The notes: generated by a model from the letters alone, not told the origin. DNA of 64,000 nt from Alphaproteobacteria bacterium (GCA_045631185.1 JAZQUH010000039.1:139740-203739), one strand, 5' to 3'; positions 2,321-43,091 are shown, counted from the stretch's first letter. Numbers and translations are program-made.

Positions 2321-2399
2321 AAAAAAATTAAAAAAATATATTTTTTTCTTTCCTTTTTATTTTAATTGGGTTAATATATAGAAAAAGGGAGATAGAAAT

Positions 2400-2693
2400 A
2401 TGCGGGAACCAATTTTGAAAGCGGTTTGTGTGCCCCCCAGACTTTTTTGGGCGCCAGCTATTATAGCTGGAGCAAATTTGATTGTTCAGTTTTCTTTGAT
2501 GTTAATGTGGGTTGGTTTAACTGGTCGCTCTATTATGCCTTTTATGTTTTCTATACCTATAGTTCATGCAATGATTGCGGTTTGGGGCAAAAAAGAGCCG
2601 CATTTGTCTAGGATTTTGATTTCATGGGGACAATCAGGTGCAACAAGTACCAAAAATGTTTATCGTTGTCGAGGAACAAAGTTTGCTCCATAA
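2400..2693 (+). CDS. virB3: type IV secretion system protein VirB3
   Basis: 97-aa two-TM protein directly upstream of virB4. PILKAV..PPRLFWAP motif region is like VirB3. Confidence 0.7.
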   Translation: MREPILKAVCVPPRLFWAPAIIAGANLIVQFSLMLMWVGLTGRSIMPFMFSIPIVHAMIAVWGKKEPHLSRILISWGQSGATSTKNVYRCRGTKFAP

Positions 2694-2707
2694 AAAAAAG
2701 GAATAAA

Positions 2708-5143: not shown

Positions 5144-5176
5144 AAAAAGGGGGGGGATCTGAAACATTTATCACTA

Positions 5177-6985
5177 TTGACAACATTATTGATTTCATCA
5201 TCTATGGTTTATGCGGGATGGATAGCCACTGGTATAGATTATAAAGGTGATTGTTTGGAAATGATGTGCGATTGTGTGGAAGACAGTGAAACAAGAGATG
5301 GATATTGTTGTCCCAATGGTACCGCTTTTGCCAATACGGGAAATCCTCATCCCACTTATACACCCTGTAAATGTCCTGAAAATTTGTCATGGGATAGTAC
5401 TTTATCCCAATGTGTGGAGTGTTTGACAGATACGAATTGTGATGAAGGTGTTTCTTGTAATATTTTAACAAAGGTATGTTGTCCGGCCGAAACACCCAAA
5501 TGGGATAGCGTTCAACAAAAATGTGTGGAATGTTTATCAGATTATGGTTCGGGTGAGCAAAATGCCTGTTCTGAAGAAAAGCCGATTTGTGATACATCAG
5601 ATTATATTTGTAAATCTTGTGCTGAATTGGATCCGTTGAAACCGTATTGGGATGAAAATACAAAAATGTGCGTTCAATGTTTGGATAATTACGGTTCAGA
5701 TGAAGGTTTGGGTTGTGTATCCGAAGAAAAACCCCTTTGTGACACAACGGATTATACCTGTAAAACTTGTGCTGAGGCGGATCCGACAAAACCGTATTGG
5801 AACGCAAAGTTGGGCCAGTGTGTGGAATGTGTGCAAGATGATCAATGTCCAACGCCCAGTGATTCCAAAAATGATGCCGTATGTTTTAACGGAACATGTC
5901 AAGAATGCCCCAAACGAATTGAAATTGTCGCAAAAAAAGTTGGCACTTCAGGAGGTTCCCATGCGGGCAGTTCTGTCTTTAAAGCAGGTTTGTACGGTCA
6001 TGAATATTGTTCTTATGATTTACATTTAAAAGGATATGCATTAAGTCAGAGTCTTTCTTTAACTTTTACCGGCGATGTTGAAACAATTCGTGAAACAACA
6101 TACGGATGCTGGAAATGTTGTAACAGTCGGACTTTTGATGGGGGTGTTTACCACAGATTACATCCCGGCACTTATTTTAAAACGTTTTGGCAATATTCGG
6201 ATTATGGTAAACATTGTAATTATTTAACCTTTACAATGGATGAAGCATATTTGGAAAGAGTTCCAAATTGTACGGATTGTACATATAAATCCGGTGTTGA
6301 TCCATCGTTCACCTATGAACAATGTGCCAATCAATTGGATCGTTATTTTAAAGATGGCAAGTGTTATGCCTGTCCGGCGGGTACAAGATCAAATGCCGAT
6401 CATACGGAATGTTTATGTGAAAAGGGTAATTATTTGTCTGGTGAAAAGTGCTATTCATGCACGGATGGAACCTATAAAAAAACAACCGAAGCGGCCTGTT
6501 ATGCCAAATGTCCGAAGGATACCCGTATGTGGAGTAAGTATGGTGGTTATAATTACTGTTTTGATTGTAATTATTCTGGCGGTATTTACGCATGGTTCAC
6601 CAAAGAAGAATGCAACCACTGTCCGAACAGATACTTTAAAGACGGTAAGTGTTCATTGTGTCCGGCTAATTCTAAGCCGAATGCGGATAACAGCGATTGT
6701 GTCTGTAACGAGGGTTATTATATGTCTAATGGTGCTTGCTATTCCTGTACGGATAAAACTTACAGGGCAGCAACCGAAGCAGCCTGTTATAATACCTGTC
6801 CGGATAATACCCGTCTGTGGCGCAAAACAAACGGTTATTGCTTTGATTGTAATTATGCCTCAGTTATAACTTCTGCCACTAAAGAAGAATGCAATCATTG
6901 TCCAAACCGATACTTTAAAGACGGCCAATGTTCGTTGTGTCCAAAGGGAAAAAAGCCTAATTCAGACAGAACAGATTGCGAGTAG
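5177..6985 (+). CDS. cysteine-rich repeat protein (CVEC-type 49-aa repeats plus ephrin-receptor/furin/VSP-like 93-96-aa repeats), probably secreted
   Basis: Long ORF with a very high Cys content and CxxC spacing, with internal tandem repeats. The true start may be upstream at in-frame CTG 5159, which would give the signal peptide (M)KHLSLLTTLLISSSMVYA. Confidence 0.7.
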   Translation: MTTLLISSSMVYAGWIATGIDYKGDCLEMMCDCVEDSETRDGYCCPNGTAFANTGNPHPTYTPCKCPENLSWDSTLSQCVECLTDTNCDEGVSCNILTKVCCPAETPKWDSVQQKCVECLSDYGSGEQNACSEEKPICDTSDYICKSCAELDPLKPYWDENTKMCVQCLDNYGSDEGLGCVSEEKPLCDTTDYTCKTCAEADPTKPYWNAKLGQCVECVQDDQCPTPSDSKNDAVCFNGTCQECPKRIEIVAKKVGTSGGSHAGSSVFKAGLYGHEYCSYDLHLKGYALSQSLSLTFTGDVETIRETTYGCWKCCNSRTFDGGVYHRLHPGTYFKTFWQYSDYGKHCNYLTFTMDEAYLERVPNCTDCTYKSGVDPSFTYEQCANQLDRYFKDGKCYACPAGTRSNADHTECLCEKGNYLSGEKCYSCTDGTYKKTTEAACYAKCPKDTRMWSKYGGYNYCFDCNYSGGIYAWFTKEECNHCPNRYFKDGKCSLCPANSKPNADNSDCVCNEGYYMSNGACYSCTDKTYRAATEAACYNTCPDNTRLWRKTNGYCFDCNYASVITSATKEECNHCPNRYFKDGQCSLCPKGKKPNSDRTDCE

Positions 6986-26946: not shown

Positions 26947-28785
26947 ATGTCACAAACAGATGAACCGGAAAAAATCGAGTCTGAAGATAAAAAGGAAACA
27001 TCTTTTGATGATGAACAAAAAGAATATCAGTCAAACAAGGATATTCCAATAAATTTTTCTGTTGAACCATTGGATTTTGATAAAACACCACAACGGAATA
27101 AAGAATTACATCGGTTTGAACAGATTTTGAATGCACCGATTTACAATATCCCGATGTTGGTTGTTGAAAAACACGAAGATGTTTTACCGCTTTTAAGTTT
27201 ATATGCCAACGAAAAAAATACGGGCTTTTTATCTGTTACACCATCTGTTTTTGATATGGATTATATGAATTTCAGGGATTCCCATGATGTTGAAAAAAAG
27301 ATGAATAAAGTCGGTACTATTTTGGAATATGGTGATTTAAATGGTGAAATCCCAGTTTATTGCGATTTATTGGATTATATGGAACATGAACTTTGGAAGC
27401 CGTTTGTTGAAAATTTCTTAAAATCAGAACGCCCTTTTGTTATTGTTGCCAGAAAGGAAGAAGCATCCGAATTAAAAGAAGAAATAGAGAAGGATTTTGA
27501 GATTTCAGGCGGTTTGGAAAAACCTGCTGAACCTCATATTCCGCAAGGCTTGGCAAAGGTATCTGAGCTGGAAATTTCATCATTAACAAATGAAGAAAAA
27601 AAGGTTTATCTGACGCATTATTTTAATTTTATTTTTATTGATAATAATTTGCATTGCTCGGATAAAAATCGTGACTATTTAATTCGTGAGGCAATCAAAC
27701 GGACATCGGATAAAAGAGAGTTATTTGATGTTTTTCGTACGATTGATCATTTGGTTGTTTTGGCCAAACAAAACGGACAAACAATGGTCTCTCGTAAATT
27801 GGTGAATCAGGCCTTGAATGAAAGAATGCCGCTCCATAATAGGACAAAGTTTTTGATGGATATGGATAAACGATTGAAAAAGCAAATTTTTGGTCAAGAT
27901 GAAGCCATTGATAAGGCGTATGAAACAATTTTATCCACTTTAGATGATGAAAAACGTGAAAAACCGTCTGTTTTGGCCTTTTTTGGTCCGTCAGGTGTTG
28001 GTAAAACGGCTTTGGCCGAAGAAATATCTTTGGCGATGACAGGAAAAAAAGTTGTTAAAATTAATATGGCCGAATATGCTGAATCCTATAAGGCATCTAT
28101 TTTGACCGGTTCGGCCAAAGGTTATGTGGATTCGGATGAAGACGGATTGTTGGCCAAAGCGATTAAGGAAAATCCAAATGCTGTTATTTTATTGGATGAA
28201 TTTGAAAAGGCACATCCCAAGGTTCAACACTTATTTTTGGGGATTTTTGATAAAGGTTCTTTGTTTGATAATCATGCGGGGCAGATTGATATGTCAAAAG
28301 CCACGATTATTTTAACGTCTAATGCTGGGGTACGTCCGGAGCAAAGTTTGGGATTTGGTGGCACAATAACACCTAATTATGTGGCGGATGAAAATGCAAT
28401 TAAGTATGCTTTTCCGCCTGAGTTATTGGGACGTTTGGATGCGAAAATTTTGTTTAATCCTTTAAATGAATCTGCGTTGGAAAAAATTATTGATAAATAT
28501 ATGATGAAAATAAATCCTCGTTTTGAAAAATTGGGGGTTCAGGTGGCTCTTTCACGAAAAGCCAAAGAGGAATTATTGGCCGAAGGGAAAAATCCAATGT
28601 ATGGTGCCAGGCCTATTTTATCTTTAATTCGTCAAAAGGTAAAGTTACCGATTGAAGTTGGTGTTTTAAAGAAAAAAATAAAAAAGGGCAATAAAGTTTT
28701 GGTGACTTCTTTACAAAAAGATAATTTAAAGGTGTTGCCAAAACAAGTTAAAAAGGTTTGCTTGAAACCATCAAAGGAATTATAA
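26947..28785 (+). CDS. Clp/Hsp100-type AAA+ ATPase with only a D2-like module and a novel ~300-aa N-terminal region
   Basis: FGQDEAI...FFGPSGVGKTALAEE (Walker A), ILLDEFEKAHP (Walker B), TSNAG (sensor 1), PPELLGRLD. No Walker motifs in residues 1-300. SLGF lies at the position of the ClpA IGL loop. Confidence 0.7.
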   Translation: MSQTDEPEKIESEDKKETSFDDEQKEYQSNKDIPINFSVEPLDFDKTPQRNKELHRFEQILNAPIYNIPMLVVEKHEDVLPLLSLYANEKNTGFLSVTPSVFDMDYMNFRDSHDVEKKMNKVGTILEYGDLNGEIPVYCDLLDYMEHELWKPFVENFLKSERPFVIVARKEEASELKEEIEKDFEISGGLEKPAEPHIPQGLAKVSELEISSLTNEEKKVYLTHYFNFIFIDNNLHCSDKNRDYLIREAIKRTSDKRELFDVFRTIDHLVVLAKQNGQTMVSRKLVNQALNERMPLHNRTKFLMDMDKRLKKQIFGQDEAIDKAYETILSTLDDEKREKPSVLAFFGPSGVGKTALAEEISLAMTGKKVVKINMAEYAESYKASILTGSAKGYVDSDEDGLLAKAIKENPNAVILLDEFEKAHPKVQHLFLGIFDKGSLFDNHAGQIDMSKATIILTSNAGVRPEQSLGFGGTITPNYVADENAIKYAFPPELLGRLDAKILFNPLNESALEKIIDKYMMKINPRFEKLGVQVALSRKAKEELLAEGKNPMYGARPILSLIRQKVKLPIEVGVLKKKIKKGNKVLVTSLQKDNLKVLPKQVKKVCLKPSKEL

Positions 28786-28800: not shown

Positions 28801-29874
28801 ATGTTTGATGAATATAGTGAGTTTTATTTTGCACAAGAAGATCATGGCAATTTTTTACATATTTATGTTCCTGGTAAATTACCGATGGCCAGAGGCGTAA
28901 AGCAAATAAAATGGACTGGAAATTTTGAAAAGCCTTCAAAAGAAAATTATAAAAAAGAGGCAATAATTTTACGTAAAAATCTTAAAAAAAACGGATTTTT
29001 AAAAGATTTACCGCAACGTCAATTGCCCGGATATAATTCATATTATCCGTATGATGTTTCCCCAATGGGAATTTGGGAAATTACACCCGACTTAAGGGAT
29101 TTGATATATGTGCGAAATGATGTTGCCTATAAAATGAGACATACTTTGTGGTTTCCGTTGTTGAGAAAATTACAGGAAAAGATTGGTCAATATGATTATA
29201 TCCAATTGACTTTGCCCAAATTACCAAAATTGATGTTGGAAGAACATTTAAACGAATGGTATAAAAACAATACTCTTGAAGCTGGTTTTATCAAACGTTT
29301 GGAAAAATTATCACAAAAAACCATGATTGATATTATGGAAGATGATAACAGCATAAGAATCAGACCGGTCAATCATCCTTTTGTGAATCAACCCGCATGC
29401 CGTATAGAATATTCACAAAATCAGGAAAAATCGCGGGAAAATTTACCTTATCAAGATATGTTAAAACTAAAACAACAGGTTGCGGAACGTGATGTTTATT
29501 TGTTAAAAGGTTTGACCGATTCAGAACGCAAAAAAATGGCGCATGCCTCTTTATCTGATATGGAACAAGATTCAACACACCAATTGCATTGGATTCATTG
29601 GCCCTCTTTAAATGGGGGTATGAACAAAGATAATGCCATTATTGTTACATCAAATATAAAACAGATGTATCAATTTGCGGTACAAACACCTTTGGAATCA
29701 TTTTTAAAATCCCATGGTTCGGATTTGGCAAAAAAAGGTAAACCTGTTTTTGTTGAGTTGCCGATTCCATATAATGGTTATCGTTCAGCGCCGATAAAGA
29801 AAATAAAAACAAAACATCAAAATCGTTCAGAATTAAAGCAAAAATTGCAAAAAGCGCTTGAAACGGACAGATAA
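28801..29874 (+). CDS. hypothetical protein (357 aa), probably co-transcribed with the AAA+ gene
   Basis: 15-nt gap after the AAA+ stop. No recognisable motif. Confidence 0.55.
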   Translation: MFDEYSEFYFAQEDHGNFLHIYVPGKLPMARGVKQIKWTGNFEKPSKENYKKEAIILRKNLKKNGFLKDLPQRQLPGYNSYYPYDVSPMGIWEITPDLRDLIYVRNDVAYKMRHTLWFPLLRKLQEKIGQYDYIQLTLPKLPKLMLEEHLNEWYKNNTLEAGFIKRLEKLSQKTMIDIMEDDNSIRIRPVNHPFVNQPACRIEYSQNQEKSRENLPYQDMLKLKQQVAERDVYLLKGLTDSERKKMAHASLSDMEQDSTHQLHWIHWPSLNGGMNKDNAIIVTSNIKQMYQFAVQTPLESFLKSHGSDLAKKGKPVFVELPIPYNGYRSAPIKKIKTKHQNRSELKQKLQKALETDR

Positions 29875-29878: not shown

Positions 29879-29910
29879 ATCCCCGACCAATTCGGTCGGG
29901 GATGGCTTTT
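29879..29910 (+). terminator. hairpin H1 (tccccgacc family), terminator
   Basis: atccccgacc-aattc-ggtcggggat followed by ggcttttt. Confidence 0.75.
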
Positions 29911-29935: not shown

Positions 29936-29964
29936 TTGACAAGAATTGAATTATTTGCTATTAT
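29936..29964 (+). promoter_or_regulatory. promoter of the hyd maturation operon
   Basis: TTGACA-17 nt-TATTAT, about 25 nt upstream of the SD aaaggag. Confidence 0.6.
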
Positions 29965-29988
29965 CTTAAGTGTGAAAAGGAGTTTAAA

Positions 29989-30234
29989 ATGGAAACACGA
30001 GTAGCGATTATTGCAATTATAGTTAAGAATCGTGAAACCGTATCTCAATTAAATGAGATTTTACACACATATGGTGATTATATAATCGGTCGTATGGGAA
30101 TTCCTTATTCACAAAAAAAAGTCAGCATTATGAGTGTGGCTGTTGACGCGCCTCAAAATATTATTTCTGCTCTTTCCGGCAAGATAGGAGCTTTATCAGG
30201 AGTTAGTGTCAAAACAGCATACGCTGATGCTTAA
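29989..30234 (+). CDS. TM1266-family small ACT-like protein (putative iron-only hydrogenase system regulator)
   Basis: 81 aa. RVAIIAIIV.NRE....LNEILH.YGDYIIGRMGIPY pattern and its position upstream of hydG match the TM1266 family. Confidence 0.7.
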   Translation: METRVAIIAIIVKNRETVSQLNEILHTYGDYIIGRMGIPYSQKKVSIMSVAVDAPQNIISALSGKIGALSGVSVKTAYADA

Positions 30235-30286
30235 ATTTTAACAACTGATGGGGAAGAGTTATCTGACCCAAAAGAAAGGATATAAT

Positions 30287-31702
30287 ATGTATAACCCTAG
30301 ATCACCCAAAGCGGTGGATTTTATTGATAATCAAGAAGTTTTAGATACACTTGATTATGCCGAAAAAAATAAAACAAACAAAGAACTTATCAATCAGATT
30401 TTAGATAAAGCAAAGCAGTTGAGGGGATTGAATCATCGGGAAGCTTCTGTTATGCTTGCTTGTGAAATCCCTGAGGTAAATGCCGAAATTTTTCGTTTAG
30501 CTGAACAAATAAAAAAAGATTTTTATGGTAACAGAATAGTCTTATTTGCTCCGCTTTATTTATCAAATTATTGTGTCAATGGATGTGTTTATTGTCCTTA
30601 TCATTTAAAAAATAAACATATGCCACGTATAAAACTGACGCAAGAACAAATTCGTCAGGAAGTTATTGCCTTGCAAGATATGGGACATAAACGTTTGGCG
30701 ATTGAAACTGGTGAAGATCCTGTGAATAATCCGATAGAGTATGTGTTAGATAGTATTAAAACCATTTATTCCATTAAGCATAAAAATGGTTCTATTCGTC
30801 GGGTTAATGTCAATATTGCGGCAACAACTGTTGAAAATTACAGGAAATTAAAAGATGCAGGTATCGGAACTTATATTTTATTCCAAGAAACCTATAATCG
30901 TGAATCCTATGAAAAACTTCATCCAACAGGACCAAAGCATGATTATGCATGGCACACTGAGGCTATGGACAGAGCGATGCAGGGGGGAATAGATGATGTT
31001 GGTTTGGGGGTTTTATTTGGATTGGAATCGTATCGTTATGAATTTGCAGCACTTTTAATGCATGCTGAACATTTGGAGGCTTGTTTTGGTGTTGGTCCAC
31101 ATACCATTTCTTTTCCACGCATCAAAAAAGCCGATGATATAGATCCGAAAGCTTTTGATAACGGAATAGACGATGATATTTTTGCAAAAATAATCGCTTG
31201 TGTCCGAATTTCAACACCTTATACAGGAATGATTATTTCAACTCGAGAAAGTCAGTCATGTCGTGAGCGGGTTATTCGTTATGGTATTTCTCAAATTTCT
31301 GGTGCATCTCGTACTTCTGTTGGTGGGTATACACAACCTCAGCGTTCTCATGATTCGGAACAATTTGATGTATCCGACCAACGAACGTTGGATGAGGTTG
31401 TACATTGGTTGTTACAGATGGGGTATATTCCCAGTTTTTGTACTGCCTGTTATCGAGCAGGCAGAACAGGTGATCGTTTTATGTCTCTGTGTAAAAGTCG
31501 TCAAATTTTAAATTGTTGTCATCCGAATGCTTTGATGACATTAAAGGAATTTTTATTAGATTATGCTAGTTTTGAAACGCAAATGATTGGTGAAAAAGTT
31601 ATTCAGGAACAGTTGGAGAATATCACTAACGAAGCTGTTAAAAATATCACTATGCGTAATTTGGCCAAAATAGATTCTGGCGAAAGAGATTTTCATTTTT
31701 AA
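30287..31702 (+). CDS. hydG: [FeFe]-hydrogenase maturase HydG (radical SAM tyrosine lyase)
   Basis: CVNGCVYC (Cx3Cx2C) and C-terminal CTACYRAG...C cluster motif. About 470 aa. Start at ATG 30287 after aaaggat. Confidence 0.85.
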   Translation: MYNPRSPKAVDFIDNQEVLDTLDYAEKNKTNKELINQILDKAKQLRGLNHREASVMLACEIPEVNAEIFRLAEQIKKDFYGNRIVLFAPLYLSNYCVNGCVYCPYHLKNKHMPRIKLTQEQIRQEVIALQDMGHKRLAIETGEDPVNNPIEYVLDSIKTIYSIKHKNGSIRRVNVNIAATTVENYRKLKDAGIGTYILFQETYNRESYEKLHPTGPKHDYAWHTEAMDRAMQGGIDDVGLGVLFGLESYRYEFAALLMHAEHLEACFGVGPHTISFPRIKKADDIDPKAFDNGIDDDIFAKIIACVRISTPYTGMIISTRESQSCRERVIRYGISQISGASRTSVGGYTQPQRSHDSEQFDVSDQRTLDEVVHWLLQMGYIPSFCTACYRAGRTGDRFMSLCKSRQILNCCHPNALMTLKEFLLDYASFETQMIGEKVIQEQLENITNEAVKNITMRNLAKIDSGERDFHF

Positions 31703-31719
31703 AATAAAAAAGGATATTG

Positions 31720-32907
31720 ATGAATTGTTTATCATTAAATGAAACCCCTAAAGGTTTATGTCCTGTCATTTCCTTTATCGGTTGTTGTAATGTGGGTAAA
31801 TCTTCTTTGTTAAATGCTTTGACAAAAGAAGAAGTTTCAATTGTGTCTGAAATTAAAGGAACAACGACGGATGTTGTCCAAAAAAGGCATGAGTTAATTC
31901 CTGTGGGACCGGTTATATTTTATGATACAGCAGGTTTGGATGATACAAGTGATTTAGGGGAAAAACGCATACATGCGACAATGAAGGTTTTGGAAAAATC
32001 AGATTTAGTTGTTTTAATTTGTGCCGAAAAAGGAATTACAAAAACAGATAGTTTAATGATTAAAAAACTTAGATTAAACAGAAAAAAATTTGTTATTATC
32101 TTTAATAAGGATGATTGTGTTGTCCCACAAAAAAAAGATTTATCATTCTGTGAAGAACACCAAATTCCTTTTATAAAAACGAATGTTAAAAAGGATATTT
32201 CTTTCCTATATCATTTTTTGGCGGGTCAGATAGATTCGGAAGATATGGATTTATTTGGAAAATTTTTAAAAAAAGAAGATATTGTAATATTGGTTACACC
32301 TATAGATAAATCAGCCCCTAAAGGCCGCTTAATTTTACCTCAGGTTCAAACAATACGTGAAATTTTAAATAAACATGCCATAACAATAACAGCTCAACCG
32401 TCGGAATTAGTATCAACTTTAAACTGTTTAATCAGGAAACCCCGTTTAATTATATCTGATTCTCAAGTTGTAAAACAAGTTTCTCAACTTATTTCTTGTG
32501 ATATTTCTTTAACAACGTTTTCGGTTCTAATGGCAAAATTAAAAGGAGATATATCTGTTTTTAAAAAAAGTTTATCTGTTTTAAATCACTTAAATGATGG
32601 TGATAAAATTTTAATTTGTGAATCTTGTTCCCATAAAATTTGTTCAGACGATATTGCACATGTAAAAATACCAAATGCAATTAGAACTTATAGCAAACAT
32701 GATATCATTTTTGATTATACACATGGGGGTGATTTTCCTGAAAGTTTATCTGGGTATAAATTAGTTGTCCATTGTGGCGCCTGTATGTTTAATAAAACGC
32801 AAATGATGGCACGTATACAACAATGTTTAAGGGAAAATGTTCCCATTACAAATTTTGGGCTTCTTATGGCCAAACTTAATAACATTCATTTGGCGGATAT
32901 TTCATGA
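31720..32907 (+). CDS. hydF: [FeFe]-hydrogenase maturation GTPase HydF
   Basis: G1 GCCNVGKSSLLNAL, DTAG, NKDD. C-terminal CxH...HCxxC (CESCSH ... VHCGAC). Confidence 0.85.
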   Translation: MNCLSLNETPKGLCPVISFIGCCNVGKSSLLNALTKEEVSIVSEIKGTTTDVVQKRHELIPVGPVIFYDTAGLDDTSDLGEKRIHATMKVLEKSDLVVLICAEKGITKTDSLMIKKLRLNRKKFVIIFNKDDCVVPQKKDLSFCEEHQIPFIKTNVKKDISFLYHFLAGQIDSEDMDLFGKFLKKEDIVILVTPIDKSAPKGRLILPQVQTIREILNKHAITITAQPSELVSTLNCLIRKPRLIISDSQVVKQVSQLISCDISLTTFSVLMAKLKGDISVFKKSLSVLNHLNDGDKILICESCSHKICSDDIAHVKIPNAIRTYSKHDIIFDYTHGGDFPESLSGYKLVVHCGACMFNKTQMMARIQQCLRENVPITNFGLLMAKLNNIHLADIS

Positions 32908-33872
32908 CGTTGACAGAAGAAGAAATCGTATCTTTGTTAGTTGATTCAAAAAATCAACATCAATTATTCAAAAAGGCAGATCAAGTCAGACAGGAAAATG
33001 TTGGTAATTCTGTTTTATTAAGAGGATTAATAGAATTTTCAAATAGTTGTAAAAATAACTGTTTGTATTGTGGCTTGAGAAAAGATAATATTCAACTCAA
33101 ACGTTATAACCTTTCACAAGAGGATGTATTATGTTTGGTAAAAAATGCTGTTCAATTAGGCTTAAAAACAATAGTTTTTCAATCCGGGGAAAATTTTGTA
33201 TATTCATGTGATAAATTATGCCGAATAATTGAGCAAACAAAAAAATTTGGTGTTGCGGTTACATTAAGTATTGGCGAAAAAAGTTATCAGGAATATAAAG
33301 CGTTTCGAGATAGTGGTGCAGATCGGTATTTAATGCGTATAGAAACGACAGATCAAAAAGTATATCATGATTTAAACCCGGGTATGAGTTGGCAGCATCG
33401 TTATGAATGTTTACAAATGATTAAAGAACTTGGATATGAGTTGGGTTCAGGAATAATGGTTGGTTTACCCAGGCAAACATTAAAATCAATAGCACGTGAT
33501 TTGTTGTTTTTGAAAAAGTTGAAAATTGATATGGCAGGGATAGGACCATTTATTCCTCATCCTTGTACACCATTAAGTGATTGCAAGGCGGGAACATTGG
33601 ATTTAGCTTTAAGGACGATGGCAATTATGCGCATTTTATTACCACATATCAATATACCTGCAACAACGGCAATGGAAAATATAAATAAAAATGGCCAAAT
33701 AAAAGCATTGCAATCAGGGGCAAATGTTATCATGCTTAATGCAACTGATTCTTTACATCGTTCTTTATATGAAATTTATCCATCTGATAAATCCTACTAT
33801 GATACCTTATCAGATAATTATTTTGATTTAAAATGGAAAATTTATGCTATAGGGCGAAAAATAGATGGTTGA
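32904..33872 (+). CDS. hydE: [FeFe]-hydrogenase maturase HydE (radical SAM)
   Basis: CKNNCLYCGLR Cx3Cx2C near the N-terminus, BioB-like fold length (322 aa). ATGA overlap with hydF. Confidence 0.8.
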   Translation: MTLTEEEIVSLLVDSKNQHQLFKKADQVRQENVGNSVLLRGLIEFSNSCKNNCLYCGLRKDNIQLKRYNLSQEDVLCLVKNAVQLGLKTIVFQSGENFVYSCDKLCRIIEQTKKFGVAVTLSIGEKSYQEYKAFRDSGADRYLMRIETTDQKVYHDLNPGMSWQHRYECLQMIKELGYELGSGIMVGLPRQTLKSIARDLLFLKKLKIDMAGIGPFIPHPCTPLSDCKAGTLDLALRTMAIMRILLPHINIPATTAMENINKNGQIKALQSGANVIMLNATDSLHRSLYEIYPSDKSYYDTLSDNYFDLKWKIYAIGRKIDG

Positions 33873-33916: not shown

Positions 33917-33946
33917 AAAATCCCCGACCGTTTGGGCCGGGGATAG
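33917..33946 (-). terminator. hairpin H2 (tccccgacc family)
   Basis: Minus strand ccccggcc-caaac-ggtcgggg followed by auuuu. The single mismatch is a G.U pair only in the minus-strand RNA. Confidence 0.65.
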
Positions 33947-33952
33947 TTTATA

Positions 33953-33970
33953 TTAAAAATTACGTTCCAT
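33953..33970 (-). CDS. candidate 5-codon mini-ORF MERNF (copy 1)
   Basis: taAGGAGGaaaag-ATG GAA CGT AAT TTT TAA. It has its own promoter upstream and hairpin H2 downstream. Confidence 0.35.
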   Translation of the reverse strand: MERNF

Positions 33971-33992
33971 CTTTTCCTCCTTAGATGAATAA

Positions 33993-34020: not shown

Positions 34021-34050
34021 AAAAAAATCCCCGACCGTTTTAGCCGGGGA
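34021..34050 (-). terminator. hairpin H3 (tccccgacc family), terminator of the bor-like gene
   Basis: Minus strand ccccggc-taaaac-ggtcgggg followed by aU7. Confidence 0.75.
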
Positions 34051-34062
34051 TAGTTTTTCAGT

Positions 34063-34353
34063 TTAATCTTGTTTACAGTAAATTGAATAACCACGCGGCG
34101 AATAAATCCCATAGGTAATACCTGTAATTAAACCTTGGATAAATGAGTAGTGGGTTTCAACACCGATAACCTCTTTTTTTCCACAAACATCTTTTGGGTT
34201 TATTTCCTTTGATTGACCTAATCCACCCAGAATAAAATGAGTTGTTCCTTCATAGGTTGGAACTGTTGGCATTCGGTCTGTTTTTATGGGAAATTGTTGT
34301 GTGCAACAACCGGCCAATAAAAACAATGAGCATAATAAAGTATATTTTTTCAT
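34063..34353 (-). CDS. bor: Bor/Iss-family outer-membrane lipoprotein
   Basis: 96 aa. Lipobox LLAGC. THFILGGLGQSKEINPKDVCG...VETHYSFIQGLITGITYGIYSPRGYSIYC aligns by eye with lambda Bor (HHFFVSGIGQKKTVDAAKICGG...TETQQTFVNGLLGFITLGIYTPLEARVYC). Confidence 0.8.
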   Translation of the reverse strand: MKKYTLLCSLFLLAGCCTQQFPIKTDRMPTVPTYEGTTHFILGGLGQSKEINPKDVCGKKEVIGVETHYSFIQGLITGITYGIYSPRGYSIYCKQD

Positions 34354-34580: not shown

Positions 34581-34610
34581 AAAAAAATCCCCGACCGTTT
34601 TGGCCGGGGA
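34581..34610 (-). terminator. hairpin H4 (tccccgacc family), terminator of acd plus mini-ORF copy 2
   Basis: Minus strand ccccggcc-aaaac-ggtcgggg followed by aU7. Confidence 0.75.
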
Positions 34611-34620
34611 TAGTTTTTTT

Positions 34621-34638
34621 TTAGAAATTACGTTCCAT
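34621..34638 (-). CDS. candidate 5-codon mini-ORF MERNF (copy 2)
   Basis: aAGGGGGAaact-ATG GAA CGT AAT TTC TAA, 14 nt after the acd stop. It differs from copy 1 by a synonymous TTT/TTC change. Confidence 0.35.
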   Translation of the reverse strand: MERNF

Positions 34639-34652
34639 AGTTTCCCCCTTGG

Positions 34653-36728
34653 TTATTTCAACAACATTTTGAAGTCCACCACAACGGCACGGTCTTTTGT
34701 GACCAATACAGGGTTGCCGTCAATGGATGTGATTTCGGGAATTTCCAAAACCAACTTTTGAACTTTTGCCAATGTATCGGCCAACGGTCCGACGGCTTTT
34801 GGATCTTCGCCACGCACACCATTCAAGATGGTACCGACTTTTGTTTCCTTAATCATGGCATCAAAGTCATTGGCGGGCAAGATACGCATTGTTGTATCAC
34901 GCATGACTTCGGTATAAATACCGCCTGTACCGAACACCAACACACGGCCGAAGTTCTTATCGGAATTGACGCCGATAATTGTTTCGGTGGCTTTGGTAAT
35001 CATTTCTTGAATCAAGACGCTGGCACCTTTTAATTCAAACTTGGCGATTGTGGCTGTCAAAGCATCAAAGGCTTCGTTGAATTTTTCTTCGGAATCAATG
35101 TTCAAATAGATACCCTTCATTTCTGTTTTATGTAAGGCATCAGGGGCCGACAATTTCAACACGACAGGGAAGATATTTTTGGCAAAGGCCAAAGCTTCGG
35201 CTTTATCGGTAAAGTTACCGCATTTCGGATAATCAATACCATAATGATCCATAATCATGTTCATTGTGGATTGCGGTAAAGAGGCCAAACCTTCGGAAAC
35301 GGCAGAAGCAACAGCGGCTTTAATATCGGCCGGCACTTCGCTTGTTTCAACTTTCACATCGGGCAATCCTTTGAATGCCATTTGGGCTTTCATCAAGCCG
35401 AGCAAACGGATACAGTCTGTCGGATAATCATAGGCCAAAATCTTGGCGTTTTTCAATAATTGAACGGCTTCACGCACACGGGAACCACCTATGAAAGAAC
35501 AATAGATATTGACGTTTTTATATTGTTCGGCCATTTTGATAACAGCTTGGGCTGTTTCAACGGGTTCTGTGGACATTTGCGGTGTCAACAACACGATGAT
35601 GTTTTTGTATTCACCGGATTCACACAACACACGCAAAGCATTTTCATAACGGTCTGCCTTGGCATCACCCACCACGTCAATGGGGTTACCGACGGAAGCT
35701 TCAGCGGTTAAAACGGCACGCAAAGCTTCAATTGTTTTTTCGGACGGTCTGGCCAAATCCAACTTGGCTTCTTCGCACAAATCAGAAGACAACACACCCA
35801 CACCACCGGCGTTTGTTAAAATACCGACAGCACCGCCAAAGTCTGTGTGATTAACGTTTTGCAATAATTCCAAAGCACCAAATAATTCACGGGTTGTATA
35901 AACTTGGATAGCACCACTGCGTTGCAAAGCAATTTCCAACACACGATAGTTGGGGGCCAAAGAACCTGTATGGGACAAGCTGGCTGCTTGGGCTTTGCTG
36001 GATTTACCCGGTTCCATAATTACACACGGTTTTGTTTTGGAAACTTCTTTCAATACACGCAAAAATTCCTGACCTTTTTTCAATCCTTCCAAATAGAACA
36101 CAAAAGCCTTGGTGTTTTCGTCATGTTGAATGAAGTCCAACAAGCTGGCTTCGTTCAAATCTGCTTTGTTACCCACGGAAATAAAGTGAGAAAAGCCAAT
36201 GCCTTTTTCTTCGGCCCAATCCAAAATCGCACTGCAATAAGCACCGGATTGAGAAATAAAGGCCACATTACCCTTTAATGGGAAGCAAGGTGCAAAAGAA
36301 GCATTTAATTTATCAAAAGTGGAAATATGTCCCAAACAGTTCGGACCCAACACATTGATACCGGCATCCAAACATTTTTTGGCAATTGTCAATTCCAATT
36401 CTTTATTACCGACTTCACCAAAACCGGCGGTAATAATGCTGATGTTTTTGGCACCGTTGGCGATGGCATCATCCACGGCCGCTTCACAAAAACGGGCCGG
36501 CACCAACAATACAACCAAATCAACGGCTTCGGGAATATCACGCACGGAGGCAAAGCATTTTTTACCTTTTAATTCCTGACCGGCCAATTTGGGATTCACT
36601 CCGTATAAATTGCCTTCAAAACCGGCATCAATCAAGTTATTAAAAACGACCGCGCCCAATTTGGATTCATCGGCCGAAACACCAACAACCGCCACGGATT
36701 TCGGTGCAAAGAATGTATTTAAAGACAT
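34653..36728 (-). CDS. ADP-forming acetyl-CoA synthetase (acetate--CoA ligase, fused alpha-beta, NDP-forming acyl-CoA synthetase family)
   Basis: N-terminal CoA-binding FFAPKSVAVVGVS...KLG. Succinyl-CoA-synthetase-like ligase domain with the phospho-His region SLSHTGSLA. C-terminal ATP-grasp domain. 691 aa. Confidence 0.8.
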   Translation of the reverse strand: MSLNTFFAPKSVAVVGVSADESKLGAVVFNNLIDAGFEGNLYGVNPKLAGQELKGKKCFASVRDIPEAVDLVVLLVPARFCEAAVDDAIANGAKNISIITAGFGEVGNKELELTIAKKCLDAGINVLGPNCLGHISTFDKLNASFAPCFPLKGNVAFISQSGAYCSAILDWAEEKGIGFSHFISVGNKADLNEASLLDFIQHDENTKAFVFYLEGLKKGQEFLRVLKEVSKTKPCVIMEPGKSSKAQAASLSHTGSLAPNYRVLEIALQRSGAIQVYTTRELFGALELLQNVNHTDFGGAVGILTNAGGVGVLSSDLCEEAKLDLARPSEKTIEALRAVLTAEASVGNPIDVVGDAKADRYENALRVLCESGEYKNIIVLLTPQMSTEPVETAQAVIKMAEQYKNVNIYCSFIGGSRVREAVQLLKNAKILAYDYPTDCIRLLGLMKAQMAFKGLPDVKVETSEVPADIKAAVASAVSEGLASLPQSTMNMIMDHYGIDYPKCGNFTDKAEALAFAKNIFPVVLKLSAPDALHKTEMKGIYLNIDSEEKFNEAFDALTATIAKFELKGASVLIQEMITKATETIIGVNSDKNFGRVLVFGTGGIYTEVMRDTTMRILPANDFDAMIKETKVGTILNGVRGEDPKAVGPLADTLAKVQKLVLEIPEITSIDGNPVLVTKDRAVVVDFKMLLK

Positions 36729-38942: not shown

Positions 38943-39859
38943 TGACCCCTCAAATTGATGCTTTTTTGGAAATGATGCAGGCACAACGGGGAGCTTCCGT
39001 CAATACTTTATCGGCCTATCGGCGTGATATGTATTTGTTGGATGAATATCTGTTGTCGCATCATTCGGGTTTGTTAAAAGCCACCGAAGATGATTTAAAA
39101 TCTTTTTTAAAGTTTTTAATGAATACGGGGGATTCGGTGCGCACTCGTGCCAGACGATTGTCCTGTATTCATGAATTTTATCGTTTTGCCTATTCGGAAG
39201 GGTGGATAAAGGTCAATCCGTCTGATTATTTACAAGGTCCGAAATTGCCCCAAACGTTACCCAAATACCTGACGGAAGATGAAATTTTTTTATTGATTCA
39301 GCAAGCCCGTGAAAACAATAAGCGCCTGTATGTATTGTTGGAGCTTTTATATGCCACCGGCATGCGTGTCAGCGAATTGGTTGGCTTGCCGTTGGGGGCT
39401 TTTGTGCCTGATGAACGGCATTTATTGATTTTGGGTAAAGGCGGGCGAGAACGAATCGTTCCGCTAAATGATTATGCAATTGATGCTTTGATTCAATGGA
39501 AACAAATACGTGAAAATGATTTGCCCTATAACCGCAAAAGCAAATGGTTGTTTCCTTCCAAAAGTTGCTTGGGGCATTTAACACGGGATACGTTTTTTAA
39601 AGAATTAAAAAAATTGGCTTTGCTTGTCGGATTGAATCCGGATAAGGTTTCGCCACATGTCTTTCGCCATTCTTTTGCCTCACATTTGGTGGCCCATGAT
39701 GCGGATTTGCGTTCCGTTCAACAAATGTTGGGCCACTCGGATATATCCACAACACAAATTTATACGCACATTTTACCCGACAGATTAAAAAAGATTGTTG
39801 AAAAATCTCATCCTTTGTCGTATAATGGAGCGAGGAAAAAAAATGAAGATAGCGGATAA
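38942..39859 (+). CDS. xerD: site-specific tyrosine recombinase XerD
   Basis: LSAYRRD, GPKLPQTLPKYL, ATGMRVSELVGL, HVFRHSFASHL, LGHSDISTTQIYTH. Confidence 0.9.
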   Translation: MTPQIDAFLEMMQAQRGASVNTLSAYRRDMYLLDEYLLSHHSGLLKATEDDLKSFLKFLMNTGDSVRTRARRLSCIHEFYRFAYSEGWIKVNPSDYLQGPKLPQTLPKYLTEDEIFLLIQQARENNKRLYVLLELLYATGMRVSELVGLPLGAFVPDERHLLILGKGGRERIVPLNDYAIDALIQWKQIRENDLPYNRKSKWLFPSKSCLGHLTRDTFFKELKKLALLVGLNPDKVSPHVFRHSFASHLVAHDADLRSVQQMLGHSDISTTQIYTHILPDRLKKIVEKSHPLSYNGARKKNEDSG

Positions 39860-42800
39860 ATACATTTTACGGCAACTGATTGTCGGCTTTTTATTGGTTT
39901 TAACCTGTATGACCATGCTGGTTTGGTTGACTCAATCGTTGCGTATGATTGATATGATTGTCACCAATGGCGTTTCTGTGGGTGTGTTTTTAAAAATGAG
40001 CCTTTTGGTTTTACCGCACTTTATGCAAATTTTAATGCCGTTAGCCTTGTTTGCGGTTGTTTTGTTTGTTTTTATTCGTATGCAATCGGACAAAGAATTG
40101 ATGGTTTTAAAGGCGGTCGGGATGGGCCCTTATCAGTTGATGAGCCCTGTTTTGAAGATGGCCGGCGTATTGGTGATAATCGGTTATTTCCTTTCATTGT
40201 TCTTGGTGCCGTATTCCGAAAATCAGGTGCGTGAAATGAAATGGAAAGTGCGCAATAATTTATCGCATGTGATGTTACAGGAAGGCCAATTTAATACCTT
40301 TAAAAAAGGAATGATGATTTATATCCGTGAACGTATGCCCAATGGTGCGATTAAGGGGATTTTGGCCTATGAAATGAAAGACGGTAAAAAATCCACTTTG
40401 ATTGCCGATGAAGGGACATTGTATCAATCCCCCGATGGGATAGAGGTTGTCTTTGGTCAAGGTGCCCGTCAAGAGTATAATCCCGAAACAAAACAATATT
40501 CTGTTTTAAAATTTGATAAATATACCGTTGCTTTGAATGATAAAAATCAATCGTCCGGTACACGCACACAAAAGGTCAAAGAATTGCCCTTTACACAATT
40601 ATTGACAATGAAGCGGGATGAAGCGCCCAATGAATCCACATGGCGTAAATATAAGGTGGAAGCGTTCAAACGTTTAACCCAACCGCTTTACAGCATTATT
40701 TTTGCTTTGTTGGCGTTGGTGGGGGTTATAACGGGCTATTATAACCGTCGCGGACAACCCATTCGTGTGAATGCGGTTGTGGGTTCGGCTTTATTGATTC
40801 AAACATTGGCTTTGGCCTTTGAAAATATTGCGGGTAAAAATTTATGGGGTTTGCTGTTGATGACTTTGAATATCGTGCTTCCATTGTGGATAATGGTGGG
40901 TATCTTTAAAAAAGAAAGTGGTCCCAAAGTGCCCAAAAAATATAAATATATGCTTCGTTTTGTGTTTTTGTTCGGGCTTTTATTTTCCGTTCAATCTTAT
41001 GCTTTTTCGGATATAGATACATCGGCCTTTAATAAAGATCAGCCCGTTGATTTTGAAGCCGATCATGTTTCCTATGATCAAAAGCAACAAACAATGACGG
41101 CTTCGGGCAATGTTGTATTGAAACAAAACGGTATTGTTTTTAATACGGATAAAATTTTGTATAATCAAAAATCCGATATGATTCATATCCCCGGTGAAGC
41201 CACAATGGTTTTGCCTGACGGTAATTCTTCGCTGGTGCGTGATATTCAAATTAAAGCCCATGGTGATGAAGTAAAAACAGGTAAAGGCAAGATGGATATG
41301 GCTGATGGAACGCACTTGTGGGCCAATCAAATTGTGCGTCAGGACGGTAAAGAAAATATCTTAAAGGATGCTTTTTATACACCATGTGAAATGTGTGAAA
41401 ATTCTTCACCTTTGTGGCAAATTCATGCCAGCTCGATTGAACAGGATGAAGAATCCCATATGATGCGTTTTTGGAATACCCGTGTTGAATTGAAAAATGT
41501 ACCGGTTTTATATTTTCCGTATTTTCAAATTCCCGATTATACAGTTAAGCGTCAAACAGGTTTTTTAACACCGACTTTTGGCAGTGATTCCGAATTAAAG
41601 GCTTATGTGAAAGCGCCGATTTTTGTGGATTTAGCCGAAAATCAAAATTTAACCATTACGCCGGTTGTGTCGTTTTCCCGCAATCCTTTGGGTATTTTGG
41701 ATTATCAGGGGCTGTTTTCAAAAGGTAAAGTTGAATTACAAACCAGTTATACCAAAGATGATGATGACAGAAAACAGGGACATATCCAATCCAGCTTTGA
41801 ATATGATATCAATGATTCTTGGCGTTTAACGGGGGGCTATAATCGTACTATTACGGATACTTATTTCCGTCGTTATAATGTGTTGGATGTGGATACCAGC
41901 CAATCTTTTTTAACCTCCCATTTAACGGGTGAATACTATGGTAATCGATTGTACGGTAACGCCACACTTTACAATTTCCAAAGTTTACAAGAAGGCGTCC
42001 GTTCTGAATCAATACCTGTAATTTTACCCGTCTTTAACATGCGTTATACGACAAAGCCCTTTACACAACAGGGCGGTATTATGTATTCGGATATCAATGG
42101 CGCCTTTATTAATGATCGCAATCATTTTAAATCCAACCGTTTGTCATTGACTCAGGGGATTTCGTTGCCGTATAAAACAAGTTTTGGTTTGATGACACAA
42201 CTTTCCGGATCCGTGCGTATGGATGGATACAGTGTGGATACAGGATTGACCGATATGGGCCCCCGTGCTCAGGATTCTTATTTTACGGGTCGTGTTTTTC
42301 CCCAGGCTGTGTTAAAGATAAGCTATCCGTTGATAAAAAAGAATGCTGAATATGCTCAGGTTTTGGAACCGATTGTCATGATAGTCGCATCTCCTAACGG
42401 CTCTAATCCCGATAAGATTCCCAATGTGGATAGTTCCGTTTTCGACTTTGATGATGTGAATTTGTTTTCACCCAACCGTTATATGGGATATGATAAAGTG
42501 GAATCCGGTTCGCGCATAAACTATGGTGTGCAATGGACTTTATACCAAACGGACAAAAAACGTTCCATTCAGGCTTTGTTGGGGCAAAGTATTCGTTTGC
42601 GTGAAAAAGACGAATTGGATGATGCCATGGGCTATGATGGCCATTTTTCCAGCTATGTCGGTCGTTTACAGTTAAATTATGATTATTTGACATTGGCCTA
42701 TCGTTTCCGTATGGCACAGGAAAGTTTTGAAGCACAAAAAAATGATATATCTGTTGAAGCGGGTTCATCTCCGCTCAGAATCGGATTGAATTACCTGTTC

Positions 42801-43091
42801 CAGGATTCTTTCCGTTTTGGGGATGTTTATTCAACTGCCAAAAAAGAAGTGTCGGTATATGCACGTTCTCGTTTGACCAAAAATTGGTCATTGGAAGGGC
42901 GTTATCGTTATAATTTATTAAAATCCGACAGGGGACCACTGGAAACATACGGTATTTTGCGCTATGATAATGAATGTGCCGCTGTTGAATTTGAGGCCAG
43001 TAAATCCTATACGCATGATCGCAACTATAAAGGCGATACCTCAATTACAATGCGCTTTTACTTAAAAACTTTGGGAGGATTCGGACAATGA
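39843..43091 (+). CDS. lptD: in-frame fusion of an LptF/LptG-family LPS export permease (residues ~1-369) with LPS-assembly protein LptD (from internal Met at 40950)
   Basis: YjgP/YjgQ-type six-TM N-terminal part (MKIADKYILRQL...). Then KKYKY-MLRFVFLFGLLFSVQSYA|FS, a signal-peptide-like segment. Then the OstA N-domain (VDFEADHVSYD...) and a long beta-barrel region. No stop codon between the parts. Confidence 0.75.
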   Translation: MKIADKYILRQLIVGFLLVLTCMTMLVWLTQSLRMIDMIVTNGVSVGVFLKMSLLVLPHFMQILMPLALFAVVLFVFIRMQSDKELMVLKAVGMGPYQLMSPVLKMAGVLVIIGYFLSLFLVPYSENQVREMKWKVRNNLSHVMLQEGQFNTFKKGMMIYIRERMPNGAIKGILAYEMKDGKKSTLIADEGTLYQSPDGIEVVFGQGARQEYNPETKQYSVLKFDKYTVALNDKNQSSGTRTQKVKELPFTQLLTMKRDEAPNESTWRKYKVEAFKRLTQPLYSIIFALLALVGVITGYYNRRGQPIRVNAVVGSALLIQTLALAFENIAGKNLWGLLLMTLNIVLPLWIMVGIFKKESGPKVPKKYKYMLRFVFLFGLLFSVQSYAFSDIDTSAFNKDQPVDFEADHVSYDQKQQTMTASGNVVLKQNGIVFNTDKILYNQKSDMIHIPGEATMVLPDGNSSLVRDIQIKAHGDEVKTGKGKMDMADGTHLWANQIVRQDGKENILKDAFYTPCEMCENSSPLWQIHASSIEQDEESHMMRFWNTRVELKNVPVLYFPYFQIPDYTVKRQTGFLTPTFGSDSELKAYVKAPIFVDLAENQNLTITPVVSFSRNPLGILDYQGLFSKGKVELQTSYTKDDDDRKQGHIQSSFEYDINDSWRLTGGYNRTITDTYFRRYNVLDVDTSQSFLTSHLTGEYYGNRLYGNATLYNFQSLQEGVRSESIPVILPVFNMRYTTKPFTQQGGIMYSDINGAFINDRNHFKSNRLSLTQGISLPYKTSFGLMTQLSGSVRMDGYSVDTGLTDMGPRAQDSYFTGRVFPQAVLKISYPLIKKNAEYAQVLEPIVMIVASPNGSNPDKIPNVDSSVFDFDDVNLFSPNRYMGYDKVESGSRINYGVQWTLYQTDKKRSIQALLGQSIRLREKDELDDAMGYDGHFSSYVGRLQLNYDYLTLAYRFRMAQESFEAQKNDISVEAGSSPLRIGLNYLFQDSFRFGDVYSTAKKEVSVYARSRLTKNWSLEGRYRYNLLKSDRGPLETYGILRYDNECAAVEFEASKSYTHDRNYKGDTSITMRFYLKTLGGFGQ

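Follow-up and report, generated by a model that had tools for sequence, protein, structure and literature searches.

The locus at positions 29936–33872 of the 64-kb window—herein meaning the whole stretch of DNA that was analyzed—is, by its sequence, an intact, selectively maintained operon for assembly of the [FeFe]-hydrogenase active-site cofactor. It consists of four co-directional ORFs, TM1266-like, hydG, hydF, and hydE (T-G-F-E), preceded by a sigma-70 promoter. Very probably, the operon is functional, matures the H-cluster in an uncultured anaerobic alphaproteobacterium of the gut or rumen, and serves at least one [FeFe]-hydrogenase gene elsewhere in the genome. Family assignments were made from profile scores against curated equivalog cut-offs, and all four proteins lie far above them. 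Each of them can also be aligned over its whole length with a solved structure, and the catalytic residues are in place. The gene identities given in the first-pass annotation are hereby confirmed, and every diagnostic motif it had claimed for HydG, HydF, and HydE was found.

The promoter (29936–29964, + strand) is of the sigma-70 type and consists of TTGACA and TATTAT boxes spaced by 17 nt, with an extended TG. It matches 11 of 12 positions, in agreement with the consensus promoter annotated earlier, and is the best site in the region. The same boxes are kept in the related locus L001, whose DNA homology to the window starts exactly at 29936. The TM1266-like gene (29989–30234, + strand) has an AAAGGAG ribosome-binding site ahead of its ATG and encodes a small ACT-like protein of 81 aa, which is a putative regulator of the iron-only hydrogenase system. 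The protein scores 112.5 bits against TIGR03959 (cut-off 60.8; profile positions 1–75 of 76) and 108.9 bits against PF21699, a full-length match to the ACT-like fold of roughly 75 aa, and its residues 1–77 match PDB entry 2NZC with E = 7e-13. The gene is located directly upstream of hydG, as it is upstream of hydG in 49/80 related loci. Its putative regulatory role is the database label of the family only; an experimental basis for this function was looked for and none was found.

The hydG gene (30248–31702, + strand) encodes a predicted radical-SAM tyrosine lyase that would make the Fe(CO)2(CN) synthon; its true start is likely the ATG at 30287, which follows an AAGGG ribosome-binding site and gives 471 aa as in homologues. 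HydG reaches 910 bits against TIGR03955 (cut-off 312), as opposed to 289 bits against the profile of the paralogue ThiH, which is under the ThiH cut-off of 380. It aligns end to end with the HydG structure 4WCX at 55.6% identity. Herein, the radical-SAM CX3CX2C motif (C109VNGCVYC116) falls onto its counterpart, and C398-TA-C401-X22-C424 aligns with the CTACYR...C of 4WCX. This C-terminal CX2CX22C is the motif for the auxiliary cluster carrying the dangler Fe. The hydF gene follows (31717–32907, + strand; start probably the ATG at 31720) and encodes a predicted GTPase that acts as scaffold and carrier of the [2Fe] subcluster. HydF scores 448 bits against TIGR03918 (cut-off 326) and shows the expected three-domain architecture of MMR_HSR1 (18–131), HydF_dimer (179–277), and HydF_tetramer (282–390). 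The GTPase motifs G1–G4 are G22CCNVGKS29, G48TTTD, D70TAG, and N130KDD, and the cluster ligands C304-S-H306 and H352-CGAC356 align with the CTH and HCGGC of 5LAD. A metagenome scan with HydF returned two distant GTPases only. The end of hydF and the start of hydE share 4 bp (ATGA), which implies translational coupling. The radical-SAM maturase HydE (32904–33872, + strand) scores 335 bits against TIGR03956 (cut-off 255), with the paralogues PylB and BioB at 148 and 108 bits, carries its CX3CX2C as C49KNNCLYC56, and aligns with the Thermotoga maritima HydE structures with E = 9e-90. T. maritima HydE has an accessory C-terminal cluster site, which is non-essential and poorly conserved. Since no Cys occurs after position 227, this site appears to be absent from the HydE described here.

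The operon lies between hairpins of the form ATCCCCGRCC-loop-GGYCGGGGAT. The first, H1 (29879–29903), is located 5 nt past the stop of the upstream gene (28801–29874) and has a stem of 10–11 bp with an A-run upstream and a T-run downstream (−23.5 kcal/mol, z = −5.6). As a bidirectional terminator, it insulates the hyd promoter. H2 (33920–33944), 48 nt past the hydE stop, has a G+C-rich 10-bp stem and a U-tract that is weak on the + strand and better on the − strand; it is the probable terminator of the hyd operon. The bracketing of the operon by two hairpin copies had been read as compatible with acquisition as a block. The hairpin is real, but the window contains four copies (the others at 34027–34051 and 34587–34611), each of which closes a transcription unit at its 3′ end. 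Hence, the four are intrinsic terminators and not element boundaries, and the reading as block borders falls. The element was also sought in the loci of relatives, where it is absent, so that it is uninformative on shared cassette borders.

All four genes are under strong purifying selection. Between the window and L081, one of two metagenome contigs with the same operon, dN/dS is 0.044 for hydG, 0.06 for the TM1266-like gene, 0.12 for hydE, and 0.18 for hydF; overall, hydG values range from 0.04 to 0.08. Against the second contig, L082, hydF shows 14 nonsynonymous and 8 synonymous changes (omega 0.45), a short-term comparison with small counts.

A complete [FeFe]-hydrogenase system includes a structural H-domain gene, and none lies within the 64 kb. 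Taking PF02906 and the motifs TSCCPxW, MPCxxKxxE, and ExMACxxGCxxG as defining the H-domain, no H-cluster motif occurs in the six frames of the window, and the best tblastn match to two alphaproteobacterial Fe_hyd_lg_C queries has an E of 1.4; both agree with the first-pass annotation, which had seen no HydA-like ORF. Neither a ferredoxin motif nor PFOR was seen in the window. The missing hydA had been presented as a peculiarity, but of 80 related loci, just two place hydA no more than 10 kb from hydG, and an unlinked hydA is the norm among them. In alphaproteobacterial MAGs, Fe_hyd_lg_C genes adjoin hydF (L085/L086) or stand alone (L088/L090). Homologues named monomeric [FeFe] hydrogenase from Alphaproteobacteria or Rhodospirillales bacteria are abundant, with one cluster alone occurring on 363 contigs. 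With hydA seldom linked and hydrogenase genes at other loci in related MAGs, the earlier suggestion of a hydA elsewhere holds, and we infer that the host genome has one. Two divergent HydA matches (P0336 and P0352) were considered as the hydA of the closest relatives, L001 and L081, and rejected, as they come from other MAGs.

The alphaproteobacterial, T4SS-bearing nature of the host, as annotated at first, is borne out by the markers CcrM, Lon, LptF/D, BamB, and a VirB4-family T4SS ATPase, and by relatives of at least 90% identity labeled Alphaproteobacteria bacterium. The host would be expected to belong to the order RF32. Among RNA families, Rfam finds four tRNAs in the window and nothing else. 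Convergent with the hyd operon lies a gene for a fused alpha+beta ADP-forming acetyl-CoA synthetase (ACD; 34653–36728, − strand; TIGR02717 473 bits, with CoA_binding, Succ_CoA_lig, and ATP-grasp_5 domains), whose relatives of at least 90% identity carry the same label. This enzyme catalyzes the ATP-yielding, acetate-forming step typical of hydrogen-producing fermenters.

The steps proposed for the operon follow established knowledge of H-cluster assembly in these families. Transcription would start at the strong sigma-70 promoter, run through TM1266-hydG-hydF-hydE, and end at H2. HydG would cleave tyrosine to CO and CN− and, at its C-terminal cluster, build an Fe(CO)2(CN)-cysteinate synthon, which HydE would convert to a diiron precursor. 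As a GTPase scaffold, HydF would carry the finished [2Fe] subcluster and hand it over to apo-HydA, and the ACT-like TM1266 protein may act as a small-molecule-sensing regulator. The adjacent ACD may take part in the same fermentation, in which pyruvate would be converted to acetyl-CoA and reduced ferredoxin and then to hydrogen, acetate, and ATP.

Maturases in a genome that had lost hydA would be an orphan, decaying remnant, a reading to which the lack of hydA in 64 kb lends itself, as does the fact that hydF and hydE do not adjoin hydG in L001–L004. It is nevertheless highly improbable: no ORF is broken or lacks a motif, purifying selection is strong, L001 has kept the promoter, lineages with dS > 1 between them have retained the operon, and hydA is mostly unlinked in relatives anyway. 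A host-cell-associated lifestyle had likewise been proposed, and with it a bearing on the origin of hydrogenosomal HydE/F/G. An endosymbiont-like anaerobe of this kind would fit the AT-richness (~37% GC), the VirB4-family ATPase, and the argued branching of gut alphaproteobacterial maturases near eukaryotic ones (PMC4967309). However, the relatives stem from rumen and human-gut lumen metagenomes, and the window holds a full outer-membrane/LPS biogenesis set, a candidate defense gene, and integrase/prophage traces, with no sign of an intracellular lifestyle. Moreover, HydG branches among those of gut Firmicutes, Gastranaerophilales, and Victivallales in a radiation whose deep nodes are weakly supported, and this common pool speaks against taking such loci as evidence of an alphaproteobacterial (mitochondrial) origin of the eukaryotic maturases, which a later study places as sister to those of Anoxychlamydiales (PMC7449678). 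Hence, an endosymbiont with such a bearing is very improbable, and a functional operon of a gut or rumen bacterium is the preferred reading.

With this function, a history as a horizontally acquired cassette is compatible. The fused TM1266-hydGFE would then have moved as a block into or among gut alphaproteobacteria as a recent accessory trait and not by vertical inheritance, which is conceivable but doubtful. The T-G-F-E order is found in the window, L081, and L082 only and in 0/80 species-representative loci, and the operon of L081 occupies an unrelated chromosomal site. Its neighbors in the window are of accessory type, one coding for a DolB-like AAA+ protein and the other for a phage-type Bor lipoprotein. 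The HydG sequence is 73–78% identical to those of gut Clostridia, Gastranaerophilales, and Victivallales, as opposed to 55.6% for Thermoanaerobacter, and is part of a gut-wide pool crossing phylum boundaries. Alphaproteobacterial HydGs fall in two separate clades, A and B. That of the window groups with L082, L081, and L001–L004 at 98.5% bootstrap, but the deep nodes of this neighbor-joining tree have 3.5% support, and a monophyletic clade A equally fits vertical descent within the group. GC3, a comparison proposed in the first-pass annotation, is indeed lower in hydG/F/E (0.19–0.25) than in the core genes Lon, FolD, Der, RecJ, and ACD (0.39–0.45), and in L081 (0.28–0.36 versus 0.40–0.48), with no such contrast in the lower-GC L001 and L091. 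It is a weak marker of foreign origin because about half of the window shares the trait, and its use as decisive proof was rejected since equally low values occur in AsmA (0.22), an S41 peptidase, and further genes that are likely native. At the borders, neither an integrase nor a transposase occurs, and the only flanking direct repeats are the terminator hairpins with their four copies. The tRNA-Pro(tgg) at 21105 was considered as an island marker and dropped, as its 20-bp att-like repeat (21163/21366) recurs only 200 bp away and has no partner near the operon. Tentatively, the unit, flanked by a promoter and a terminator of its own, might be a portable maturation module that has shifted between sites or lineages of gut/rumen alphaproteobacteria and was ultimately drawn from a gut-wide, cross-phylum hyd pool. 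If so, this community would exchange the capacity to activate [FeFe]-hydrogenases as an accessory trait, and that capacity would not be ancestral to the alphaproteobacteria.

Whatever its history, the operon extends the known hydrogen metabolizers of this community by a further uncultured gut/rumen alphaproteobacterial lineage and presents a compact variant of the maturase genes. Mildly new are the T-G-F-E fusion, the hyd GC3 below that of core genes in the window and L081, and the cross-phylum HydG pool. The understanding of H-cluster assembly is unchanged, and no new question is raised.

Compared with solved maturases (HydG 4WCX/4RTB, HydF 5LAD/5KH0/3QQ5, HydE of the 3IIZ/5FEW series, and TM1266 2NZC), the proteins align over their full length and share the cluster ligands and GTPase motifs. 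Clostridial clusters (Lachnospiraceae/Oscillospiraceae L009, L013, and L014) contain the same four families, with HydG 74–78% and TM1266 53–70% identical to the window but HydF and HydE just 37–44%. They belong to another phylum and are arranged as T-E-G-F in 18 loci and as T-G-F in 11, with no case of T-G-F-E. The hydE-hydF-hydG cluster of Anoxychlamydiales (Stairs et al. 2020, PMC7449678) is similarly a compact maturase cluster apart from hydA, in a lineage not classically linked to hydrogen production; it differs in phylum and in its marine sediment habitat.

Closest are the gut alphaproteobacteria for which HydE/F/G, [FeFe]-hydrogenases, and PFO were published in 2016 (Degli Esposti et al., PMC4967309), namely the uncultivated human-gut Azospirillum sp. 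CAG:239 and CAG:260 and Acetobacter sp. CAG:977 and CAG:267. MAGs labeled Uncultured Azospirillum sp. also occur among the matches (L039 and L048), and the literature gave nothing useful on hydrogenases in RF32 or CAG-239. The published bacteria share host class, gut habitat, and the three maturases with the window and have their hydrogenase genes at other loci. HydEFG had been called uncommon in this background; on the contrary, it has been known there since that publication, and TM1266-hydG is present in 10/10 alphaproteobacterial gut/rumen species representatives recovered. With such relatives already known to carry maturases and a hydrogenase gene elsewhere, the operon is genuine but ordinary. 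It differs in that the published lineages fall in HydG clade B, unlike the window, and in that clade B and L001–L003, where the flank suffices, have TM1266-hydG without adjoining hydF/hydE, whereas the four genes of the window form one fused T-G-F-E operon.

The maturation operon is formed by four ORFs, all on the plus strand within 29936–33872. Gene identity was assigned with NCBIfam equivalog models and their curated cut-offs, and each ORF scores well over its own: the TM1266-family gene (29989–30234; TIGR03959, 112.5 bits versus 60.8), hydG (30248–31702; TIGR03955, 910 versus 312 bits), hydF (31717–32907; TIGR03918, 448 versus 326 bits), and hydE (32904–33872; TIGR03956, 335 versus 255 bits). 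The Pfam architectures are as expected, including the dimerisation and tetramerisation domains of HydF, and the proteins align over their full lengths to structures 2NZC (TM1266 protein), 4WCX (HydG), 5LAD/5KH0/3QQ5 (HydF), and the T. maritima series (HydE). All diagnostic residues are present, namely C109-X3-C-X2-C116 and C398-X2-C-X22-C424 in HydG; the P-loop G22–S29, GTTTD, DTAG, NKDD, C304-x-H306, and H352-CxxC356 in HydF; and C49-X3-C-X2-C56 in HydE. Upstream of the TM1266 gene, a promoter close to consensus and with an extended -10 occupies 29936–29964; the intergenic gaps measure 13–14 nt, and the last 4 bp of hydF are shared with hydE. The operon, motifs, and promoter proposed by the first-pass annotation are confirmed; judged from its sequence, the operon is real, intact, and expressed-looking, and belongs to a gut/rumen alphaproteobacterium.

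A six-frame search of the 64-kb window for three H-cluster signature motifs yielded no hydA; the same search detects hydA in two Firmicutes loci. In tblastn, two alphaproteobacterial Fe_hyd_lg_C proteins found nothing in the window better than E=1.4, and the annotated ORFs of at least 150 aa comprise housekeeping, envelope, and accessory genes only, with no hydrogenase. The earlier reading that the 64 kb hold no HydA-like ORF is thus borne out. In a set of 80 hydG-centred loci from species representatives, hydA lies within 10 kb of hydG in just two. In the alphaproteobacterial MAG contigs L085 and L086, hydF neighbours the genes for a 486-aa Fer4 + Fe_hyd_lg_C protein, a 594-aa Fe_hyd_lg_C protein accompanied by a SpoIIE phosphatase, and a pair of NuoE-like proteins. 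In L085 (2865–7851), these genes form a sensory-type cluster next to hydF and the gene of a Na+/H+ exchanger; the 594-aa protein has a PF04060 domain, the NuoE-like proteins are small 2Fe-2S proteins, and the 486-aa protein is a monomeric hydrogenase. The 486-aa enzyme has abundant homologues, one cluster occurring on 363 contigs, which bear the name 'monomeric [FeFe] hydrogenase [Alphaproteobacteria bacterium / Rhodospirillales bacterium]'; in two comparison loci (L088, L090), the gene is solitary among mutY, mreBCD, and PBP2 genes. Since hydA is near hydG in only those two loci and hydrogenase genes lie elsewhere in relatives, an unlinked hydA is the usual arrangement, and the genome that bears the window operon would be expected to carry one.

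The idea that the operon is a decaying remnant is contradicted by its substitution pattern and promoter. Compared with locus L081, at a synonymous divergence above 1, dN/dS is 0.044 for hydG, 0.18 for hydF, 0.12 for hydE, and 0.06 for the TM1266 gene. For hydG, it is 0.048 against locus L001, where the promoter boxes are kept and DNA homology to the window starts exactly at the -35 hexamer. The one soft spot in the case for purifying selection is hydF, which differs from the near-identical locus L082 by 14 nonsynonymous and 8 synonymous changes; these counts are small, and short-term nonsynonymous/synonymous ratios tend to be inflated.

That this functional-looking operon is a portable cassette is a tentative reading, which we consider rather doubtful. 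With T for TM1266 and G, F, and E for the maturase genes, the 80 loci show T-E-G-F (18), T-G (16), T-G-F (11), G alone (19), and a few other orders, and none shows T-G-F-E. All 10 alphaproteobacterial loci carry T-G and lack hydF and hydE, the sequence reaching at least 5 kb downstream in six of them, and locus L091, of Gram-negative context, has a divergent hydE/hydF pair and no hydG. Only the window, L082 (98.7% nucleotide identity to the window), and L081 (protein identity 90% for HydG, 64% for HydF, and 63% for HydE) have the genes fused as T-G-F-E, and the L081 operon sits at a different site, between asmA/rpsA and trxB/mla genes. In an NJ tree of HydG, the window, L082, L081, and L001–L004 form one clade (bootstrap 98.5%) and the remaining alphaproteobacterial sequences a second, both within an unresolved radiation that also includes gut Firmicutes, Gastranaerophilales, and Victivallales. 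The window HydG fits a gut gene pool spanning phyla, because it is 73–78% identical to these gut taxa versus 55.6% to Thermoanaerobacter italicus HydG. A cassette is favored by GC3, which is 0.19–0.25 in hydG/F/E versus 0.39–0.45 in core genes, a contrast also seen in L081. However, it is absent from L001 and L091, and GC3 is weak evidence for transfer since about half of the window has low values, including AsmA and an S41 peptidase. GC3 is blocky, being low (about 0.19–0.31) at 10–17, 21.7–34.4, and 46.5–52.6 kb and high (0.39–0.45) at 17.4–20.8 and 34.6–46.5 kb and over most of 52.6–61.6 kb, which reflects either a genome mosaic or strong expression-linked codon bias.

The operon had also been described as bracketed by two hairpin copies, suggesting acquisition as a block. 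The motif ATCCCCGRCC-loop-GGYCGGGGAT in fact occurs four times in the window, all between 29879 and 34611, each at a gene 3' end, and marks no borders of an acquired block. H1 (29879–29903) lies 5 nt past the stop codon of the preceding gene, H2 (33920–33944) 48 nt past hydE, and, on the minus strand, H3 (34027–34051) 12 nt past bor and H4 (34587–34611) 42 nt past the gene of the ADP-forming acetyl-CoA synthetase (ACD). They fold into 10-bp stems (z-scores -2.8 to -5.6) and are followed by T-runs on the minus strand, H1 being additionally flanked by A- and T-runs; the motif is absent from the relatives' loci. The four are predicted intrinsic terminators sharing one sequence, probably through local duplication. 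Adjoining H2 and H4, 33945–33985 and 34612–34650 (minus strand) are two copies of one unit, in which a strong RBS (AAGGAGGA or AAGGGGGA) precedes a 5-codon mini-ORF, identical in both (ATG GAA CGT AAT TT(T/C) TAA; MERNF), and the terminator hairpin. H3 and H4 have in common a 42-bp stretch, 98% identical. The layout of these repeated units suggests that the ACD 3' terminator unit was duplicated around bor. The latter (34063–34353, minus strand; PF06291, phrog_260), a Bor-family lipoprotein gene of phage-moron type with its own terminator, is inserted between the operon and ACD.

The fused ACD gene (34653–36728) is convergent with the operon and core-like in GC3 (0.45). ACD would yield ATP from acetyl-CoA, and reduced ferredoxin would be disposed of as H2 via an [FeFe]-hydrogenase; we infer this fermentative scheme from ACD and the maturases, since the window contains neither a PFOR nor a ferredoxin-type CxxCxxCxxxCP ORF. 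Directly upstream of the operon lies a two-gene unit (26947–28785 and 28801–29874, plus strand). Its 612-aa product has a single ClpA/B D2-type AAA+ domain behind a 300-aa N terminus without assigned domain and is hit by two PADLOC models, DolB (Dodola, E=1e-36) and PDC-M37B; the 357-aa product has no match in Pfam, NCBIfam, PADLOC, or PHROGs. The pair may be a defence-system variant.

Further features lie apart from the operon. At tRNA-Pro(tgg) (21105–21510), the 20-bp tRNA 3' end (21163–21182) is repeated exactly at 21366–21385 and a 28-bp repeat occurs at 21310 and 21479, with a terminator-like hairpin after each copy; the pattern resembles traces left by past integration and excision at this tRNA. 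At 61700–63757, tRNA-Pro(ggg) is followed at once by a 631-aa DUF6538 + phage-integrase-family protein of low GC3, probably the left end of an integrated element extending past the window. Just left of position 1, contig L094 of the same species (ENA ERZ28436107 NODE_160, 1–6300) carries a podovirus-like prophage segment with capsid, head-tail connector, and nozzle genes and an S24 repressor, directly upstream of corA/xth/virB4 of the window. A single 1098-aa ORF (39795–43091, plus strand) matches LptF (residues 20–368) and LptD (413–1078) with no intervening stop codon, and no separate lptG was seen beside it; it is either a genuine inner-membrane permease/outer-membrane barrel fusion or an assembly/frame artefact. 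Two adjacent minus-strand ORFs (46480–49173, 897 aa; 49187–51973, 928 aa) match no Pfam or NCBIfam model and combine an unusually high GC2 (0.43–0.47) with a low GC3 (0.21).

The window encodes CcrM, Lon, LptF/LptD, SurA, BamB, MsbA, Der, RecJ, XerD, and a VirB4-family ATPase, and proteins at least 90% identical to its own are labelled 'Alphaproteobacteria bacterium'. The closest HydG-bearing genome is ruminal_MAG_71 (HydG identity 91%), followed by ruminal_MAG_496 and two human-gut MAGs (80–81%) and by gut 'Alphaproteobacteria', 'uncultured Azospirillum sp.', and 'proteobacterium' MAGs (73–75%). At the genome level, all of these are no more than distantly related to the window organism, Lon being ~62% identical to that of L067/L069 and CcrM ~51% to that of L051. 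The HydG-bearing relatives are rumen and human-gut MAGs, which places the organism in the lumen of the animal gut, and nothing in the data points to the endosymbiont background assumed initially.

HydEFG had further been called uncommon in such alphaproteobacteria. Gut alphaproteobacteria (Azospirillum sp. CAG:239/260, Acetobacter sp. CAG:977/267) had already been reported to have HydE, HydF, and HydG alongside PFO, ferredoxin, and [FeFe]-hydrogenases of types A and M3 (Degli Esposti et al. 2016, PMC4967309). Eukaryotic maturases were found to be sister to those of Anoxychlamydiales, not alphaproteobacteria (Stairs et al. 2020, PMC7449678). The system is only modestly new, in its fused T-G-F-E order and hints of mobility, and is otherwise a maturase operon of known type.
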